From: Escherichia phage pO111
Length of the DNA: 40,444 bases
Sequence record: OR204652.1
Reading direction: 5' to 3' (one strand)
Below the pieces are notes generated by a model. The model had not been told where the DNA came from. It made no database searches and worked only from the letters and a program-made list of their open reading frames with translations. Every line of letters starts with the position of its first letter. The stretch's first letter is position 1. A program made the position numbers and the translations under genes. Below are positions 729-40,024 of the stretch, in pieces.

Positions 729-1172
729 TCAATCACTTAGGTAATCCTCAATGACCCTCTTGACCCACGCCACAGAGAGCTTATGGTATCTCGCTATGGA
801 CGTTGCGGTCCAGCCTTTATGGTATCTTCGAATCACTATGGCCTTACGTTCCTCGCTAGGGTCTCTCTTAGTTGCATCACGTTTACCTGTGGCCTTAGTT
901 GCACGACCTTTTGAGATGCAGTCCTCTATGTTCTCCTTCTGAGTCCCTTCCTTAAGGTGCTCAGGGTTAACACATGAAGGATTATCACATAGGTGCATCA
1001 CAACCATTCCGTCAGCTATCGGTCTGCCTAGATGACAACTCAGGGAATACCTGTGGGCCATCCAATGGACTCCGTTCACACGAATGCGACCATAGCCAGT
1101 CTTCGTCTTACATCCCTTAAAGTTCCAGCAACCAGTCTCCTTATCGACAACATACTTCTTCTTGCTTATCAT
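729..1172 (-). CDS. HNH endonuclease with C-terminal helix-turn-helix (putative free-standing homing endonuclease)
   Basis: 147-aa ORF; motif HLCDNPSCVNPEHL (HNH_3-like) plus C-terminal HTH; ATG with AAGGAGGT Shine-Dalgarno; lies between terminase gene 19 and phiOR. Confidence 0.8.
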   Translation of the reverse strand: MISKKKYVVDKETGCWNFKGCKTKTGYGRIRVNGVHWMAHRYSLSCHLGRPIADGMVVMHLCDNPSCVNPEHLKEGTQKENIEDCISKGRATKATGKRDATKRDPSEERKAIVIRRYHKGWTATSIARYHKLSVAWVKRVIEDYLSD

Positions 1173-1209: not shown

Positions 1210-2970
1210 TCACCACTCAATGAAAGACGTACCGTATCCCTCATCGTCCTCATAGTACACATCAACTCCTCCTACAGACATCTCAATGATATGCGTAGCA
1301 GAAACCGTAGGACGCATCATGTGTTCCTCAAGGAAGTCAGCAAGTACTTCACCCTCGACCTTAACGGAATCCAATTGCATGGACTCACGGAGGTACTCAA
1401 CGCCTAACGCAAGGGAATCCAATCGGTCATCGTGTGCCAGAGCGCCTTTCTCACGGGTAATACGAGTCATCTGGTAGAACAGCGAATACTTAACGTCATG
1501 CTTACCGTCTACGTCACGAGCGGACTGGTAGTCGGCCCTAATGACCTCATCACGAATGACAAGGCGGTGAGTCTGCATGACTGGCTCAAGGGTATCACAA
1601 ATGCGCATCTCCTTCATACCACGAGCACGAATCTCTTCCATCGCACAGTTGTGGTGTTTAAGAAGGATAGGACTGAATACCTTACCAAACATACCGTCAC
1701 CGAAGTTACTCTCGTAGACAACCGTCTGGACCCCCCATTGCTTAGCTTTCTTAGCGAGCAACTCAAGGGTCTTATCGGAGTAACCATCACGGAAACCTCC
1801 AGCTTCCATAAGGTAGATGTAACCGTTCAGGGTGTATAGCACAGCGTAACCTGTTTCGTCCTTACCGCGACCACTAGGGTCAATGACCAGAATCTTCTGT
1901 TGGTACTGACCAGAGTTGTTAGAACAATCGTGGTACGTATGAAGGTCATCACCCTTAAGGCCCACGTTAGGAAGGTCCTCAATGATGTTCTGACGGTTCG
2001 GAAGCCACTGGTAATGCATTGGGGCCTTCTCTAAGTCTAAGGCCGCTACGATAGCGTCACGGAGCCTCAGAGGGTACTTCTCGGCATCACTCAGGTTCGG
2101 GTTAAGCATGAACTGTAACGTAAAGCCAGCCTTACCGTATTCCAACTCACGCTCACGGAGGTCGTCTCGGTCGAATCGAACAGGGTCTGTAGGAGTACCA
2201 GCCAGCGCCTCAGGATTCTCCTCGTACTCCGCACGAAGCATTGGAGCAAGACGTTGGGCATAGTAAAGACTCTCTTCACGCGTCCTTGGGTACAAGGCAG
2301 GCCATATGATAGTGGTATACCCACGGTTATCCTCAAGTTCCTTATACAGAGTCATCTCAGTCTGAGGAGTACCAAGGTAGATAACACGAGATGTGGGCAG
2401 CGGTTTAAGAAGCGCAGCGAACTCTTGAACTAGAGTCCATAGCTTCTCACGGGCACCCATGGTCGCACTGTTAGACGGAATCTCAACGTCATCCGCAATG
2501 ATAATATCAGCACGGCTACCAGTTAACTGACCAGTGATACCTACTGATTTCACACTAGGCGAGTGGTCAGGACTAGCAGGACCAACATCGAAACTAATCA
2601 CAGAGTCACGCTGTCCGGGTCTCGGCTTCAACTCACTGAGAAACGGTAGCAGGTCAATGATGTTCTTGATGAATATGGAGTTAGCGTCTGCACGTTCTTT
2701 AGAAGCTGATACGATAAGTATCTTCAACTGAGGGTCCCGCCATAAGGACCACACAACGAACGCACATGTGATGAACGACTTACCGATACCACGGAAAGCC
2801 TGTAAGATGAACTTCTTGTTGTCCCCATTCGCCAGTACCTTAGCCATGTCAATCTGACACTTAGTGGGCACCGGAAGGTTTAACGCCTTCCATAAGACGA
2901 ACAGGAACGCCACGAAGTCTCCTTTCAGTTGCGCCACTACGAGCGCATTACGATTGGATTGAGTAGACAC
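1210..2970 (-). CDS. 19: Terminase large subunit
   Basis: 586 aa, same length and near-identical sequence to recalled T7 gp19; GTG start after AAGGAGGT. Confidence 0.95.
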
Positions 2971-3429: not shown

Positions 3430-3811
3430 AAGTTTCCTCCAACAATCTCGCGTGAGTTTCCCTAGCCCAAGAAACAACTTCCTCTAGATTAGTGGTAGGC
3501 GCATAAGTTTCCTTACGACCTCCCATGCGAATGTCACCATAGTAGACCATACAGCCTTTCCTCTTTGCGAATCTAGAGTATACACCCTTTGGTAGTTCCC
3601 TACTACTAATCGTGTTAGCCCTGTTAGCACCTCTAGGTACTGCCCTCAGGTTAGATAACGCATTATCCAGTGTGTCACCATTTATATGATCGATGACGTA
3701 CCCTTCTGGGATTGGACCATTGGCCTCTTCCCAAATCAGGCGGTGTACATTGTGTACCTTACCATTTATGGTTACTCGATAGTACCCTCCACTCAGGTAT
3801 TGACCTTCCAT
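3407..3811 (-). CDS. HNH endonuclease with AP2-like DNA-binding tail (putative homing endonuclease)
   Basis: 134-aa ORF; GYVIDHINGDTLDNALSNLRAV HNH motif; ATG with GGAGA Shine-Dalgarno; sits between gene 18 and Rz and overlaps the Rz start by 23 nt. Confidence 0.8.
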   Translation of the reverse strand: MEGQYLSGGYYRVTINGKVHNVHRLIWEEANGPIPEGYVIDHINGDTLDNALSNLRAVPRGANRANTISSRELPKGVYSRFAKRKGCMVYYGDIRMGGRKETYAPTTNLEEVVSWARETHARLLEETYGITCNR

Positions 3812-4361: not shown

Positions 4362-5981
4362 TTAATATTGGAAATCAATTTTAGCAAACCAGAAGAAGTT
4401 GTCTCGGACTGTTGAGCCAGAGGAGATGGCAAATACACTACCGCGCTGTACCCACCACGTAACAGTGTTGGCCTCTTGATACTGGGCGCGAGTAGACGTT
4501 GACACCTGCGTTAAGATCACTCCTCCACTTACCGGTGTATAAGGGAAACCAGTATCTGGAATTATGTTTATGTTTACCTGAGTGTTAGGCGGAACCTGCT
4601 CCGCATAACCCCACACTTCTGCCACGGAAGGGTTTGCAGGGTCAACTCTCCAACCACGTAGTGAGTTGCCGCCTGACATTTGATGCGTATTAGCCAATCT
4701 GTTCCACGTCCCATTAGGGTCTCCCCATGCTAATTCTCCGTACTCCGTCATGAATAGCGCTTCACCAATCTTACCGGGCCAGTGGAACGTTATCATAGGA
4801 CTTCGACCTAGATTGTTCGCTGTGTCCCAACCAGCCATTGGTCTAACCTCTATAGCACCATTATATTTTAAACCTAATGGGTTCTCACCATTCTTTCGGA
4901 AAACATTAAGGCCGTCTGATTCACCGGGGAATATCAAACTGGAGTTCCACGCAAACTCAGACTTTTTCAGGTCTTCTTTGGTTACCATAGTGTTACCGTT
5001 TCGGGTGGCTCGACCTTTAACTGCAAGATCCCTACCAACGTCTAGGTCGCCGGAGACAAAATTATAACCAGAAGGGTTACGCGCTTGGATTGCATCGCTA
5101 ACCATCATGGCACCTTTCATGGTGACGTTGTGACTAACTGGGTCCACAGAGTCGATTGCTCCAGCAAAATCGTTCATGTTACCAAGTTTATCTGCCTCAC
5201 TCTCAGCACGGTCTGCTTGCTGTTCTGCCAAAGTAGCAGATTTAGCGGAAGCAGTAGCTGAGTTCGCAGAGTTCACCTCGGATTGATGGGCAGCAGCCGC
5301 AGAGTTACCAGCAGCGGTAGCCTGTTGTGTAGCAGTGTTCTTGAACTGTTCGGCCTCATTTCGGAACCCCTCAGCCTCATTACGCCACTTATAGGTATTA
5401 GCAGCGTTAGTGCTGGACTCGTTCTTAAAGCCCTCCGCTTGGTTCTTGAAAGCCTCTGCTTCATTGCGGAACTGTAAGGACTCATTACGAGCTTGCCAAG
5501 AACTCTGGTTCATGGTCTTAAGTTGACCTAACGGAACAGCGTCACGGTCATCAACAGCGTTCGCTAGGTTCACGATACGACGACCACGGGCATCCAAGTG
5601 ACCATCATTGTTGACACCAATAGTATCCGCAGTCATGTCACGAGCCTCCTCCGCTACGTGCATCGTTTGAATCTGAGCAACGTTAAGGTCATACGCACGG
5701 AGGATTGAACCGTCCGTAAAGCCAACCAATCGGTCGGTCGTGGAGGTTACTCGACGTAACTCAACGGTCGTGTACCCATCAGCCGGACCCCAAGCCTTGG
5801 TCAGTGAGACGGTAGTACGTGTAGCAAAGCGATAGTCTGTATTAATCGTAAGGACCTTGCGGTCTACACCGATAAGAGTTACCACTACGAACTTACGGGC
5901 TAGATACTCAAACGGGATATTAAAATCACGATTGGAGCCATCTAACGGGTAAGTCAAAACGGTTTTAATTACGTTAGCCAT
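4362..5981 (-). CDS. 17: Tail fiber protein (conserved N-terminal tail-attachment domain, divergent C-terminal receptor-binding region)
   Basis: 539 aa; first ~265 aa match recalled T7 gp17, C-terminal ~270 aa do not. Confidence 0.9.
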   Translation of the reverse strand: MANVIKTVLTYPLDGSNRDFNIPFEYLARKFVVVTLIGVDRKVLTINTDYRFATRTTVSLTKAWGPADGYTTVELRRVTSTTDRLVGFTDGSILRAYDLNVAQIQTMHVAEEARDMTADTIGVNNDGHLDARGRRIVNLANAVDDRDAVPLGQLKTMNQSSWQARNESLQFRNEAEAFKNQAEGFKNESSTNAANTYKWRNEAEGFRNEAEQFKNTATQQATAAGNSAAAAHQSEVNSANSATASAKSATLAEQQADRAESEADKLGNMNDFAGAIDSVDPVSHNVTMKGAMMVSDAIQARNPSGYNFVSGDLDVGRDLAVKGRATRNGNTMVTKEDLKKSEFAWNSSLIFPGESDGLNVFRKNGENPLGLKYNGAIEVRPMAGWDTANNLGRSPMITFHWPGKIGEALFMTEYGELAWGDPNGTWNRLANTHQMSGGNSLRGWRVDPANPSVAEVWGYAEQVPPNTQVNINIIPDTGFPYTPVSGGVILTQVSTSTRAQYQEANTVTWWVQRGSVFAISSGSTVRDNFFWFAKIDFQY

Positions 5982-23769: not shown

Positions 23770-23925
23770 TTAGTGACATACGGCCCAATTAGGACCCATC
23801 TTACCTTCGGTATCCAGAAGACACCGGAAGTTCCAGTGGTCTCCTACCCAGCGCATCGCTTCCTGTGCAGTCTCAATGACCACCTGAGCAATCTCTTCGG
23901 TACGGCAACCTACTTGAATCTCATC
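23770..23925 (-). CDS. 5: DNA polymerase gene 5, exon 2 (C-terminal 51 codons)
   Basis: Manual translation DEIQVGCRTEEIAQVVIETAQEAMRWVGDHWNFRCLLDTEGKMGPNWAVCH*, which continues the T7 gp5 sequence right after ...AYMAWVH. Confidence 0.85.
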   Translation of the reverse strand, partial: DEIQVGCRTEEIAQVVIETAQEAMRWVGDHWNFRCLLDTEGKMGPNWAVCH

Positions 23926-24526
23926 CTTTCTGTATTCTCCTATTACTAGGAGTGTCGGACTATATCATCAGCCTTTGAGTTGACTGTCTGGCGCTTCGGG
24001 TAACGAGGGAATCTCACCCTCGGCCCTACTCCTTTCGGATAGTCTCTACGCCTTCCACTCTCTAATCCACTTACAAGCGGCAGAGAACGTTACACCAAAC
24101 TTCTCACCTAAGTGTGCTCCTGTACATCCAGTCTCCAACCAGTATTCCTTCGCGGACTCTTTACGGTCAGCGTAGCGTTCCCTGTTTGTCTTGACTGTAT
24201 GCTCAGAACCTTCTAGTAACTGGAGGTGCTCTACGTTACAGCACGCCCTGTTCCTACACTTGTGGTCTACTTCATACCCTTCTGGTATATCTCCGTAGTG
24301 TTCCTTCCAGACTGTCCTGTGATACATCTCTAGGACACCGTTCGTCTTCTTTCGGAAATAACCATCAGTATTAAGTTTGTGTGACGTAGGGATGATACAA
24401 CCACTCGCTGTGGTCGCAAGGATTAACTTCTTGCCTCTCATATATCCTCCCTATGGCTTGGCTCGGTATTGCCCTAGAAGGGTTTCACCGAGTTCACCAG
24501 ATTTAATGTGCACAATGAGATAGTTT
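23926..24526 (-). mobile_element. Group I self-splicing intron in DNA polymerase gene 5, carrying an HNH homing-endonuclease ORF
   Basis: 601 nt between the gp5 exons; exon 1 ends in U; GUGCAC near the intron 5' end can pair with exon end GUGCAU (U-G wobble); R-like AGAGACUA and S-like GAUAUAGUCC elements; CUCCUA-GUAA-UAGGAG hairpin; intron ends in G. Confidence 0.8.
24046..24441 (-). CDS. Intron-encoded HNH homing endonuclease
   Basis: 131 aa ORF inside the intron; YEVDHKCRNRACCNVEHL HNH-type motif; ATG with GGGAGGA Shine-Dalgarno; stop codon overlaps the R-like element. Confidence 0.82.
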   Translation of the reverse strand: MRGKKLILATTASGCIIPTSHKLNTDGYFRKKTNGVLEMYHRTVWKEHYGDIPEGYEVDHKCRNRACCNVEHLQLLEGSEHTVKTNRERYADRKESAKEYWLETGCTGAHLGEKFGVTFSAACKWIREWKA

Positions 24527-26485
24527 ATGCACCCATGCCATGTACGCAAAGTCCCCATCCCAGCCATGCTTCAAGCCTTTCTCTACGAGCATCTCTTCGG
24601 TCTTGATAATCCACAGTTTGCAGATGAGAGCACCAGCAGATTGTAATAGGGTATTCAAGGCAGCGTGAGGACTACGGACGTGTACCTTACGACCATCCAG
24701 ACCTTTAATCCAGCGGCGTTTCCACTTGACTCGCTGTTCGCCAGCTACCCACTGAGAGGACTCAACAAGTGTCTGTTGGATAGACTCACGGAGTGCTGCA
24801 ATCGCTGGGGTGTTCTCAAGGAATTTCTTCTTGAGTTCCTTACCGCGCTCTTTACCAGCACCAACAATCTGTCCAATCTTCTCATCACCAGCACCATAGA
24901 GGAACCCATAGATAAACGTCTTAGCGTTATCACGGGTAGGCAATTCGGCAGCTATCTGGTTCTTAGTGTGGATGTCGCCATTGAGAATCTCGTGAGCGTA
25001 CTCACCGTTGTCAAAGCGAGCCATGAAGTGGGCCAAGCATCGCAACTCCAGACCGGAGGCGTCTATACCAGCCTGAACCCAAGGCTTACCTGTAAGTCCA
25101 TCTAGGTGATGTTCAGCGCCAAAAGCAGCGCGGCACTGCTCACCATAAGGAGAACGGACACCGGGTATCTGTGCGAGGTTAGGGAAAGCGTGAGTAGCGC
25201 GCCCAGTAACAGCGCCGTTGGGATTAACAGAACCATGAATTTTACCATCCTCAGCAACGTAACGAAGCCACGCCTTGTCTCCCTCAGCTGACTGTCCGAT
25301 TCTCTTCTGAATCATCAAGTATTCTTTAATGAGGTCGATTGCAGCTTGCTTCTCAGGGTCATCTACACGTACTCCTTCGAGTACCTCATCGTCCACCACA
25401 GGCGCACCCTTATCGGTGTACTTCGTGGGGACCCACCCAGCCTCTTGAAGTTTCTTCTGAATGTGGTCACGGGACGAAGGGTTAAACACTACGTGCTCTA
25501 CCGGAGTATATGGGGCACCAGCAACGTACTCGCGGGTATCCAGTTCGCAAGGCTCACGGCCTTCTCGTTGTGCCTTGTTCTTAGGCTTCTTAAAGATACC
25601 ACCAACTTTAGGTGTCTTAATGCGAGGGTATTTAGGCAGTGGTTTACCTGTCCGAGGATGGCAGAACATCTCAGTGCCACCTTTAGGCTGATACCACGAG
25701 CCGAACGTTTCGGTCAGCTTACGCAGCAACTCTGAGCGGCGAGCAGCCAACTCTACGTACAACTCCTCGATTGCTTTCGTGTCAAACGGGAATCCATTAC
25801 GCTCTTGCTTAGCGAGTAGCCATGCAGCGCGATGTTCAACATCAACGGCCTCAAGGGATTCTGACCAGAACGTAGTGTAGCCTACGTCCGTAAAGTCAAT
25901 CTCAGGAGGGAAGTAATGTTTATCAGAGAGTAGCTTCTCAAGGAGAGCCTTAGTGACCACAACGTCCTGAACGTTATAGGCCATCATCTCTTCGTTGAAG
26001 TTCCACCACTCCATTCCGTCAACGTATTCTTCACCTTGCTCTTCAAGCATACGCTTAAAGTCATCCTTGTATTCACCCTTCATCTCACCTAAGCGATAGC
26101 CCCACGCCTCCAAAGCGTGAGACCCAAAGCGTTTACCGGGCAACTTACCGGAACGCAGAAGACCCATATCGGTGTCTTTAAGGTTAGAGTGAATCAATCG
26201 TGACAGCACAAGGGTGTCGATACAGTTCTCACGGGGAAGGTGGAACTCACGGTTCAATTGTAGCTTTGCCAGTTTGGTCAATGCGGGAACGTCATACTTG
26301 TGACCGTTGTGGAACACGATAAGACCGCCTCGTGCAACCTCGGCTTCCAGCGCATCCAGATACGCACCGAAGTCACTCGGACGGTAGCTTACGTACTCAG
26401 CGGTGGAGTAGTCATAGATAACCCCGCAGTGGAACTTAGTGACGCTCTCTAAGAGGGCGTTAGCTTCGATGTCAGAAACGATCAT
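24527..26485 (-). CDS. 5: DNA polymerase gene 5, exon 1 (653 codons)
   Basis: Near-identical to recalled T7 gp5 residues 1-653; the unspliced ORF runs 7 extra codons (KLSHCAH*) into the intron. Confidence 0.9.
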
Positions 26486-26514: not shown

Positions 26515-26739
26515 TCAGAGCACGAACGATTCGATATGCGCTATGCGGGTCATTGAGTCCTTACAGGAGGTCTCAAAGTCCATCTTAGGTTTCTTCCAGC
26601 CAGTCTGTCTTGTCCAAGTCCAACCTAAGCTCTTCAAGATGTGAACAGCGGAGCGAGTCTTAGCTTCATGGTACTTAACGTCCTCAAGTTCAGCTTCCAG
26701 TTTAGCGATTTCTGCTTGGATAACTTTAGGGTCACGCAT
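26515..26739 (-). CDS. 4.7: gp4.7-like protein (74 aa)
   Basis: ATG 12 nt downstream of the phi4.7 transcription start; track ORF trimmed to MRDPKVIQAEIAKLEAE...; shorter than the 135 aa recalled for T7 gp4.7. Confidence 0.6.
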   Translation of the reverse strand: MRDPKVIQAEIAKLEAELEDVKYHEAKTRSAVHILKSLGWTWTRQTGWKKPKMDFETSCKDSMTRIAHIESFVL

Positions 26740-26745
26740 GGTAAT

Positions 26746-26768
26746 ATCTCCTATAGTGAGTCGAATAG
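26746..26768 (-). promoter_or_regulatory. T7-type phage RNAP promoter phi4.7 (variant)
   Basis: Reverse complement CTATTCGACTCACTATAGGAGAT; core -11..+2 conserved. Confidence 0.75.
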
Positions 26769-26775
26769 TATTCAT

Positions 26776-26803
26776 GAAGGCCACCACTTGGGCGACCTTG
26801 AGT
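26776..26803 (-). promoter_or_regulatory. Putative RNase III processing hairpin (R4.7-like)
   Basis: Motif gaaggccacc...gggcgaccttgag shared with the hairpins at 33971, 34543 and 38731. Confidence 0.5.
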
Positions 26804-26812
26804 ATACAACTC

Positions 26813-27082
26813 TTAGCTATCAATCTTGTCAAGGATAGCCATAGCTTCATTGACGCGACCAGCTTCATGAATTGCAGTCACGGCAGCTTTGGTAAGCGCA
26901 TTGACCAGACGCAGTGCTTGCTCATCCGTCAACGTCATACGCTGAGTGTGATTCTTAGAGGACTTAGAGTCCTTCCAGCGGTAAACCATAGTCGCCTTAC
27001 CGTTGCGAACGTTGATATGAACTCGACGGTTCCACTGGTCAGCGGTATCGGATAGACGGATGGTTTCAGCTACGTTAGACAT
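26813..27082 (-). CDS. 4.5: gp4.5
   Basis: 89 aa from the internal ATG (MSNVAETIRL...), same length as T7 gp4.5. Confidence 0.8.
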   Translation of the reverse strand: MSNVAETIRLSDTADQWNRRVHINVRNGKATMVYRWKDSKSSKNHTQRMTLTDEQALRLVNALTKAAVTAIHEAGRVNEAMAILDKIDS

Positions 27083-32497: not shown

Positions 32498-32995
32498 TTA
32501 TTGTAGCTCAGCTAGTAGTTTGTCGCGGGTCGCTACAGCCTCGTTAAGTGACTTGTGATATGAGACATATCGTCTGCCGAACTTCCTAACGGAGACGGTG
32601 TATAGGTTTCTATCATGTCTCTTATTGATGTGCTTAAGCCCCAGCTTGTTGGTGCAGAATGCTCCTTTGTTCTGATTGTTCTCAGCGCTTGTGACCACTC
32701 TGAGATTCTCTATGAGGTTATTCTGCTTATTTCTATCGATATGGTCTATCTGTAAACCGTCTGGTATAGGGCCGTTAGCAAGTTCCCACACTACTCTGTG
32801 AACCATTAAGTAGTGCGCCTTTCCTTCCACCCTGACACATAGAGTCCAATACCCAGTCTTCTTTAGATAGCCAACGGGCTTCCCATTAATACGCGAGAGG
32901 CCACTAGGAGACTCCCTGTCAATCTTAAATCTTTTCGCTACGATTTCCCTCAACTCCACGGAAGCAGGTGAAGGAAGGATGTCTGAGACTTCCAC
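32498..32995 (-). CDS. HNH endonuclease (free-standing, putative homing endonuclease) at the gene 1.4 position
   Basis: 165 aa; LQIDHIDRNKQNNLIENLRVVTSAENNQNKG HNH motif; GTG start with GGAGG Shine-Dalgarno; overlaps the last 71 nt of the ligase gene. Confidence 0.8.
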   Translation of the reverse strand: MEVSDILPSPASVELREIVAKRFKIDRESPSGLSRINGKPVGYLKKTGYWTLCVRVEGKAHYLMVHRVVWELANGPIPDGLQIDHIDRNKQNNLIENLRVVTSAENNQNKGAFCTNKLGLKHINKRHDRNLYTVSVRKFGRRYVSYHKSLNEAVATRDKLLAELQ

Positions 32996-37258: not shown

Positions 37259-37439
37259 TTTGTACCTCTTTCGGTCAGGAATCGTATCTATTCAGGCCAC
37301 CCGTAGATGACCTGTAAGATAAGACTATCAGCCCATTAGCATTGCGTCAAGTTTCTTATCAATGTTGAGCTGAAGACCATTAGCGATAGCCATCCGGTCA
37401 GCTTGGAACCAGTGCGCTGCGATTCGTTCCTCAAGCACC

Positions 37440-38408
37440 TTAAAGTCCCCCCGCGAACATGTGCGCCCAGAGCATAGCGTTATTGGTTCTTCCTAGTACA
37501 TCTACAGCTACCTCATGGTTACGACGTTCTTGACGCTCAGCCATGCGCCACGCATTAAGCATCCTCTCACGCTTGGCGCGGTGTGCCTTACGTTCCTTAC
37601 GGTTACGGCGTTTCATTCTGCGAGCTTCTAAGCGCCCCTCATGGCGTTCTTTACGCCCCTTGGCGCGGTCAATTTCTTTCTGTCGTGCGACTTCCTCGAC
37701 TTCCTTGATGAGTTCCTCAGGGTCCATGCTGAAAGCGCCACCGTCTTTCTTCTGTGAGAATGACACCGGGTCGGTAATGTACGGTACGTCGTTATCGTCG
37801 AACATGATGTTACCGCTGTGCATGTCAAACGAAGCGATGCCCTCAAAGAACTTGCGGATTAGCTTACAAGTCTCGATGAACTCCCCATCCCATCCGGTAC
37901 GTTTATCATACGCAGACGAGTTGTAATCAATAATGTCGCTTGCAATCGAAGCATATTTATCGTGCACTCCATTATCATACGATTCACAGTCGTTGAGTGC
38001 ATCAAGCACCACCGTGTAACAACCAGCATGACGCTGAACGTCGTAGACGTTAGGGATACCAGCGCGGCCCTGATACATGCGGCAGAATGCGATATACGCA
38101 GCGCCTGAATCCTCTTTCTTAAAGCCCACCTTAATCACTCTGTTAGGTAGCAGCGGGTGACTATAAGCAGCCGAGAAGTGACCATTACCAAGCATCTTGA
38201 AGCCAGCGTCAGCGGTCAGGCACTTTAAGGTAGTCCACCAGTCTTGAAATTCAAGCGGCTTGTCCAGCTTGGTGATTTCACCGTCACACGTTTCGCTGTT
38301 GACCATCTCGACCAGTAAATCAATGAGCATACCTTGACGCTTATCAAGTTCACAGATTGGCAGTGCTTTGATTGCGTCGATAGCGTTCATGATGTCGATA
38401 GCGTTCAC
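37440..38408 (-). CDS. 0.7: Serine/threonine protein kinase gp0.7, C-terminally truncated by a +1 frameshift
   Basis: 322-aa ORF matching recalled T7 gp0.7 up to ...NAMLW; frame is lost in a G6 run at 37447..37452; the remaining 37 codons are out of frame down to 37328; GTG start at 38408. Confidence 0.85.
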
Positions 38409-39966: not shown

Positions 39967-40024
39967 TACTCTTTTTTTTAAATTCTTTAATTTCTCTCTT
40001 TAAGTCCTCTTTAAGTAGTCTCTC

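Follow-up and report, generated by a model that had tools for sequence, protein, structure and literature searches.

It has been reported that the T7 gp0.7 kinase comprises two domains, a kinase domain (PK, residues 1–242) and a C-terminal shutoff/DNA-binding domain (SO, residues 243–359) (PMC13645617). The protein is deleterious in rich medium and substitutions and deletions in its gene are common on serial transfer (PMC2680503); adaptive deletions also recur at the 0.7 locus (PMC8923235). These reports bear out an earlier note on the DNA examined here, which described gene 0.7 as dispensable and often mutated in laboratory stocks (PMC2680503, PMC8923235). A homologue, JSS1_004, gains indels and premature stops whenever it is cloned, and both of its domains are required to overcome Dnd restriction (PMC12345140). 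ShosTA is triggered by gp0.7, and escape mutants arise in 0.7 (PMC11961720).

Two described cases of frameshifting are also relevant to this locus. Among +1 shift sites, the slippery sequence CUU_U has been called “by far the most efficient”; in prfB its main stimulator is an SD-like element (PMC5009743). With the SD inactivated, the prfB motif still gives ~10% frameshifting in E. coli (PMC6815119), and the motif without an SD gives ~7% in Flavobacterium. The stop codon is UAA in <1% of prfB genes and UGA in the rest. In the herpesvirus thymidine kinase gene, the benefit proposed for a “saviour” indel is that the product is strongly reduced while a trace of full-length protein is still made by slippage (PMC5009743).

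Escherichia phage pO111 (sequence record OR204652.1) is a T7 relative (Teseptimavirus). The window analyzed here is the whole stretch of 40,444 nt, to which all positions refer; the deposited strand is the reverse complement of the one conventionally shown for T7, and the late region is ~93% identical to T7 and 13a. Reviews cite pO111 as an isolate on Shiga-toxin-producing E. coli O111 and for the use of its receptor-binding protein in ELISA. On the minus strand, the gene order 0.3-0.4-0.5-0.6-0.7-1 was recovered, in which 0.7 lies between a 0.6-like gene and gene 1 (RNA polymerase), the early-region position characteristic of the T7 gp0.7 kinase family. The 0.7 ORF (37440..38408, minus strand; 322 aa and a stop) is the serine/threonine kinase WMM35758.1 of GenBank, and the 883-aa RNA polymerase is WMM35757.1, both as exact matches. 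The 322-aa product matched the phrog_2828 serine-threonine kinase profile with an E value of 3.5e-154 over profile positions 1–326 of 366, and its homologues carry PF27024 Phage_T7_kinase. The pO111 protein thus has the N-terminal Ser/Thr kinase domain of this family (phrog_2828/PF27024). What it lacks is the single ORF of ~359 aa with a complete domain 243–359, as the ORF stops at 322 aa. We found no ORF of note on the plus strand across 37328–37460 and no Rfam family at the gathering threshold in the whole window. After the 0.7 stop, and outside the lesion described below, TAGTCTTATCTTACAGGTCATCT is invariant; the equivalent position in T7 is the intergenic region between 0.7 and gene 1, where the E. 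coli C promoter lies.

We found that gene 0.7 of pO111 reads normally to codon 320 and then shifts frame at a run of six G (37447..37452, minus strand; C6 on the plus strand), the site of a one-base insertion compared with relatives that have G5 or TGGGG. The minus strand here reads ATG TTC GCG GGG GGA CTT TAA GGT GCT T, and the ORF ends ...AHMFAGGL-stop. The insertion puts in frame a Leu codon and a new stop, CTT TAA (37440..37445, minus strand; stop codon at 37442..37440), where the ancestral frame is GAC TTT AAG (D-F-K). This position falls within the sequence GACTTTAAG, which is conserved in relatives. Downstream, T7-frame codons 321–359 and their TGA are intact and stranded out of frame at 37328..37447 (minus strand). 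In tblastn, residues 1–318 of T7 gp0.7 matched 38408..37455 with 88% identity, and residues 320–359 matched 37450..37331 in a different frame with 85% identity (E 6e-16). The stranded 40-aa piece alone also matched the phrog_2828 kinase profile, at positions 328–366 of 366 (E 3e-7). The match to T7 gp0.7 in two frames, together with the profile match of the stranded piece, indicates that the split reflects real homology and not chance. Besides, removal of one G restores an ORF of 359 aa, identical in length to T7 gp0.7.

The frameshift is therefore confirmed as a feature of the pO111 sequence at these coordinates. The earlier note had attributed the break to a G run one base too long and had described a T7-like continuation in the adjacent frame, intact down to 37328. 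The first is borne out by the G6 run and the G5 of the nearest relatives, and the second by the tblastn and profile matches. One small detail needed adjustment. The note had ended the T7 match at ...AMLW; the protein does match that far, but homology in the original frame reaches residue 320, and EG1 and AH67C600_Q5 also read WAHMFAG. Its figure of about 37 missing C-terminal residues is right as net length, but the native loss is 39 residues, with 2 gained (GL), and only GL is out of frame.

The relatives suggest that the intact gene is the ancestral form. All 12 aligned relatives encode an intact 359-aa protein. The two nearest, EG1 and a Logan assembly from SRR7457750 (the closest, with 94% aa identity), have G5 at the site (GCG GGG GAC), and the run is shorter or interrupted, mostly TGGGG, in the other 10. 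Of 124 related family proteins that we compared, down to 61% identity, 107 have a length of exactly 359 aa, as do ~90% of the 120 best homologue clusters. Since this length is common to the family and the tail is highly conserved, the truncation is derived. No G6 allele was returned when IMG/VR (with two patterns), JGI metagenomes and GTDB genomes were searched; a G5 control pattern returned one IMG/VR contig of 39,919 bp. The exact 322-aa protein was on no other contig, and the frameshift arrangement was absent from the 12 aligned relatives, the other 123 family proteins compared and the three sequence collections. We also considered a split gene common to relatives, as the annotation “kinase | hypothetical protein | RNA polymerase” of some of them might imply. 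This candidate was rejected: in every relative annotated in this way the kinase ORF of 1080 nt is intact, and what is listed as a hypothetical protein is the 0.6-like gene upstream of it.

The stranded codons are informative about the age of the lesion. The ratio of synonymous to non-synonymous differences in the T7 frame was 5:1 against EG1, 8:3 against CICC80001 and 4:3 against SRR7457750; read in either of the other two frames, nearly all of these differences are non-synonymous. No stops or indels are present in the segment, which has only one private change. Such an open downstream frame under purifying selection in the original frame is what a recent truncation is expected to leave. The mostly synonymous changes in the T7 frame indicate that essentially all of the tail's divergence from its relatives accumulated while it was coding sequence. 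These codons leave three readings of the frameshift: it arose very recently, it is an artefact, or recoding has made it tolerable. The three options offered in the earlier note (a real mutation, a sequencing error and low-level frameshifting) are those left after testing.

One of these explanations is a sequencing or assembly artefact, in which the gene would be intact in the phage, with G5 and 359 codons, and the consensus would count one base too many in the homopolymer. Several observations point in this direction and, by the same token, against a real mutation. The G6 allele is a singleton, found in the pO111 record only, and the nearest relatives are G5. The site is one of only two coding homopolymers of at least 6 nt in the pO111 genome, and a length error specific to the sequencing platform would be expected at just such a place. 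Downstream, the frame is perfectly preserved and bears a signature of purifying selection, as an artefact would leave it, so that this property is equally expected from either cause. On the other hand, gp0.7 was the only one of 53 T7 proteins compared by tblastn to be broken by a frame change; since no second frame break was seen among them, the assembly is not error-ridden. Hidden frameshifts were also sought among proteins only partly covered by tblastn (gp4.7, gp7.3, gp1.7 and others), and none had a continuation in a second frame. The reassurance that this gives is weak, because the pO111 genome has only 20 homopolymers of at least 5 nt. The split of gp5 was considered as a candidate frameshift and rejected, as it is an intron.

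Most recent phage genomes are assembled from Illumina reads; if this holds for pO111, the consensus would seldom be wrong at a run of 6 nt. Disruptive mutations of gene 0.7 are also well documented, and an independent lesion outside any homopolymer gives the same truncation in Salmonella phage PSP2-22 (ON886116.1), whose split 0.7 gene has an 11-nt deletion relative to phage C2; this record carries the flag UNVERIFIED_ORG, and the 5' end of its 0.7 gene seems to be rearranged. Taking both sides together, we regard an artefact as rather unlikely, although it deserves serious attention.

We consider it moderately likely that the extra base is a real insertion fixed during isolation or propagation of the pO111 stock. 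The comparisons show the lesion itself, its restriction to the pO111 record, its evolutionarily recent origin and the conservation of what was lost; we infer both that the mutation is real, as opposed to a base-calling error, and that it was selected. According to this explanation, a single G would have been added to a G5 run in the sequenced stock (GCG GGG GAC to GCG GGG GGA C). Two out-of-frame codons (Gly-Leu) would then be read before a TAA formed from the conserved GAC-TTT-AAG, and the main product would be a 322-aa, 36.8-kDa gp0.7 with the kinase domain and the basic helix and without the terminal helices (321–359). Fixation would most likely have occurred through a plaque-purification bottleneck and/or through selection while the phage was propagated in rich medium on an O111 or laboratory host, a setting in which the full-length protein is toxic and is known to be counter-selected. 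A small full-length fraction could still arise by +1 slippage at GGG_G or CUU_UAA.

We further analyzed the truncated protein with regard to domain structure. The kinase (PK) domain, residues 1–242, is intact at 37683..38408 (minus strand), based on the limits given for T7 (PMC13645617) and a gapless alignment to T7. The retained part of the SO domain, residues 243–320, which includes a long basic helix, lies at 37449..37682 (minus strand), based on the same published limits and an AlphaFold2 model. No solved structure was found for any member of the gp0.7 family. The model used was that of the homologue P0031 (94% identical), in which the kinase lobe is poor and the region from residue 240 onward is confident (pLDDT ~80–92), with helices at 230–305, 307–316, 319–343 and 348–357; the two tail helices (319–343 and 348–357) have pLDDT ~90. 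This model predicts that the break at 320/321 removes the last two helices of the SO domain and keeps the basic helix. The placement of the lost region in the shutoff domain, as claimed at first, was thus correct, but the truncation takes only the last third of this domain and leaves the basic helix that is proposed to bind DNA.

The 39 lost residues are among the best conserved in the gp0.7 family. Among 120 full-length homologues, E326, A340, L347 and D350 in the lost tail are invariant, and D321, F322, D337, I341, I349 and G359 are nearly so. The truncation may have weakened shutoff or DNA targeting; a loss of shutoff is a matter of inference only, because the long basic helix is retained.

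The sequence around the new stop also raises the question of whether the frame break is complete. In a leaky version of the “saviour indel”, the insertion would be real and a meaningful fraction of ribosomes would shift +1 to make full-length gp0.7, giving a mix of mostly less toxic truncated kinase and a little full-length protein. The mRNA in the new frame reads G GGG GGA CUU UAA G GUG and offers two candidate slip sites. At 37445..37440 (minus strand), CUU_U followed by a stop is the classic prfB (RF2) +1 “shifty stop”, and a slip at CUU_UAA would yield a protein of 359 aa that has GL in place of DF. Upstream of it, GGG_G before the rare codon GGA would allow perfect +1 re-pairing, and a slip there would give the exact wild-type sequence. 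The predicted pairing of the G6 run with the anti-SD of 16S rRNA (-9.4 kcal/mol) is close to that of E. coli prfB (-10.6 kcal/mol) and stronger than that of the T7 version with G4 (-5.5 kcal/mol). A precedent is known in the herpesvirus thymidine kinase, where low-level frameshifting rescues genes that have gained or lost one G within a run of G (PMC5009743).

However, other features of the site do not fit efficient frameshifting. A spacer of 1 nt (2 nt if the first five G pair) separates CUU from the SD-like run, whereas +1 frameshifting needs 3 nt. The stop is UAA followed by G, whereas prfB has UGA followed by C in >99% of genomes. No RNA structure was detected at the site, the local fold being less stable than shuffled controls (z = +1.75), and the leaky arrangement is conserved in no relative. 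Moreover, any +1 indel placed before the conserved GACTTTAAG would automatically produce this arrangement, which is therefore no evidence of selection. In summary, the site has the slippery CUU_U and the stop of a prfB-type site and lacks the 3-nt spacing, the poor stop context and the conservation. The suggestion of low-level frameshifting in the earlier note thus gained specific candidate sites but failed on prfB spacing, stop context and conservation. From the sequence, a low level of frameshifting at the pO111 site is plausible, and we consider it improbable that a meaningful fraction of ribosomes makes the full-length protein.

The GUG that follows the new stop suggested another possibility, a split gene with re-initiation, in which ribosomes would restart at this codon after UAA with the G6 run as SD, and the conserved two-helix tail would be made as a separate peptide of 36 aa, possibly acting in trans. 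A corresponding ORF does exist (37328..37438, minus strand; GTG start at 37436–37438; MLEERIAAH...DAMLMG, 4.1 kDa), although its expression is hypothetical. Its start lies 1 nt after the UAA stop and 8 nt after the G6 run, which is predicted to pair strongly with the anti-SD. The GTG, in place of GCG, is one of only 7 window-private substitutions in gene 0.7, and the codon is GCN in 12 of 12 relatives; in simulations with 7 random substitutions, ~0.5–1% of trials produced a start of this kind no more than a few codons from the stop. This coincidence was noticed after the fact. Besides, two of the 120 intact homologues carry Val324, and GAC TTT AAG GTG is also present in a Logan assembly whose gene is not shifted. 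The presence of Val/GTG in unshifted homologues indicates that GTG is a tolerated polymorphism which may pre-date the insertion, and the idea that it is a compensatory start is weakened accordingly. In addition, the 36-aa ORF is unannotated in GenBank and absent from the protein collection, and nothing suggests that a 4-kDa fragment folds or functions alone. We therefore consider re-initiation very unlikely.

The position of the frame break within a homopolymer is also what would be expected from transcriptional slippage or from a phase-variable contingency tract, in which RNA polymerase, or the replisome at high frequency, would alter the length of the G run and so turn the gene on and off. 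Such switching could in principle be useful, as gp0.7 disarms defence systems yet triggers others such as ShosTA. Known cases of slippage and phase variation use runs of roughly 7–9 nt or more, and the run of 6 nt is short for either process. The tract is not conserved, with G5 in 2 of 12 relatives, a shorter or interrupted run in 10 of 12 and no other G6 found. A phase-variable locus would have a long conserved tract with length polymorphism among isolates, and this was not observed here. This explanation appears extremely improbable.

The lesion in pO111 is of an ordinary kind: a dispensable, toxic early gene is cut short by an indel of one base in a homopolymer, whether by recent mutation or by base-calling error, and nothing in the data shows a new mechanism. 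For annotation and quality control, WMM35758.1 (322 aa) should be flagged as a frameshifted allele and not as a natural short form. If the insertion is real, as we favor, pO111 provides a natural allele that separates the terminal two helices from the basic helix of the SO domain, whereas published work deleted only the whole domain (243–359). Such an allele could help to map toxicity, DNA targeting, anti-defence activity (Dnd, retrons) and ShosTA triggering. A more elaborate version is that the allele is a dosage-tuning “saviour indel”, with two accidental tandem +1 slip sites and a GUG restart that together keep some anti-defence function. If this were true, the product would be mostly a truncated and less toxic kinase, with full-length gp0.7 at a few per cent and/or the tail as its own peptide of 36 aa, and the phage would escape either the toxic effect of the shutoff domain or detection by systems such as ShosTA. 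The truncation of PSP2-22 at the same stop would then hint that trimming of the terminal two helices is a recurrent adaptive route. We give this version little credence. A real insertion would also make the pO111 site a simple natural test case for adventitious +1 frameshifting at an SD-CUU-stop arrangement with a sub-optimal spacer.

The pO111 locus can be compared with four known systems. Like prfB, it has CUU_U before an in-frame stop recognized by RF2, an upstream G-rich SD-like element and comparable predicted anti-SD pairing, and a +1 shift would restore a functional downstream frame. Unlike prfB, it has a spacer of 1–2 nt (3 in prfB) and UAA-G (UGA-C in prfB), and it is neither conserved nor autoregulatory; the pO111 motif, known from sequence, is a by-product of an indel beside conserved codons, whereas that of prfB is programmed. 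The likeness to the thymidine kinase of herpes simplex virus is in the event itself, as in both cases a viral kinase gene that is dispensable has a run of G altered by a single base, and the differences are bacterial translation and a shorter run (6 versus 7–8). The split gene of PSP2-22 is similar in outcome: its deletion, within 12 nt of the pO111 position and immediately upstream of GACTTTAAG, leads to the same CTT TAA and strands the same tail. It differs from pO111 in being a deletion and not a homopolymer insertion, and in having no SD-like run before CUU. With T7 gp0.7, pO111 shares the place in the early region, 88% aa identity and the two-domain PK/SO architecture. The pO111 allele also resembles the T7 laboratory loss-of-function alleles (deletions, nonsense mutations and delta-SO) in disrupting a dispensable, toxic and counter-selected gene. 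However, the delta-SO constructs remove all of 243–359 and the pO111 allele only 321–359, and while the T7 laboratory alleles were found in engineered or long-passaged phage, that of pO111 is present in the deposited genome of a wild isolate.

Lesions in the gp0.7 tail (residues 321-359) were also found in other phages. Salmonella phage PSP2-22 (ON886116.1, 1306..1467), compared with phage C2, has lost 11 nt (TGTTCGCTATG) immediately 5' of GACTTTAAG. This deletion cuts gp0.7 short, and the protein ends at the same CTT TAA stop as in pO111. The PSP2-22 record, whose status is UNVERIFIED_ORG, labels the tail as a CDS of its own, "host transcription shutoff". Because its kinase ORF begins at residue 35 and adjoins a packaging gene, the arrangement of this sequence suggests that the record is rearranged or misassembled. 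Another natural allele was detected in Logan assembly ERR6125580 (about 1650..1665), where the gp0.7 homologue (P0129, 353 aa) lacks the final tail residues (...NIDKQC-stop), apparently owing to a short deletion close to the 3' end. In this allele, codon 324 is GTG (Val) and the gene is unshifted. With regard to homopolymers, a genome-wide count in pO111 showed them to be strikingly scarce: runs of at least 5 nt numbered only 20 in 40.4 kb, and no A5 run occurred in the 40.4-kb genome. The longest run, T8 (39972..39979, + strand), is non-coding and lies near the left genome end in the T7 orientation.

Comparison with T7 proteins revealed differences in several small genes of pO111. Homologues of T7 genes 1.4 and 5.3 were not detectable in the window by this comparison, and homology to T7 gp4.7 (26515..26868, - strand) was limited to amino acids 1-69. 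Besides, gp1.2 and gp5.5 diverged strongly from their T7 counterparts (35% and 45% identity, respectively) amid adjoining genes that were 90-100% identical, and this sequence pattern indicates that small accessory genes have been swapped as mosaic pieces. Three additional HNH/homing-endonuclease-like ORFs, all on the - strand and resembling T7 gp2.8, gp3.8 and gp7.7, were present near gene 1.4 (32531..32800), between genes 18 and 18.5 (3443..3745) and after gene 19 (822..1136), positions at which T7 has none. These ORFs probably account for part of the surplus length over T7. In the 3' half of gene 17 (about 4400..5112, - strand), homology to T7 gp17 ended at amino acid 288 of 553, and therefore the C-terminal receptor-binding part of the pO111 tail fibre differs from that of T7. 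This difference fits the fact that pO111 was isolated on E. coli O111 and that "pO111-ORF8" has, in published work, served as a binding protein specific for O111.

Gene 5, encoding DNA polymerase (26485..23773, - strand), was interrupted by an insert at 23936..24536. This segment of about 600 bp separates the coding sequence for gp5 amino acids 1-653 from that for amino acids 654-704 and contains an HNH-endonuclease-like ORF (24046..24441). In a local search, the insert scored 38.4 bits (E 3.4e-8) against RF00028, the full Rfam model of group I introns, which is below the gathering score of 50. The insert probably represents a group I intron that splices itself and carries a homing endonuclease. 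Gene 5 introns of this type are also known from other T7-like phages.
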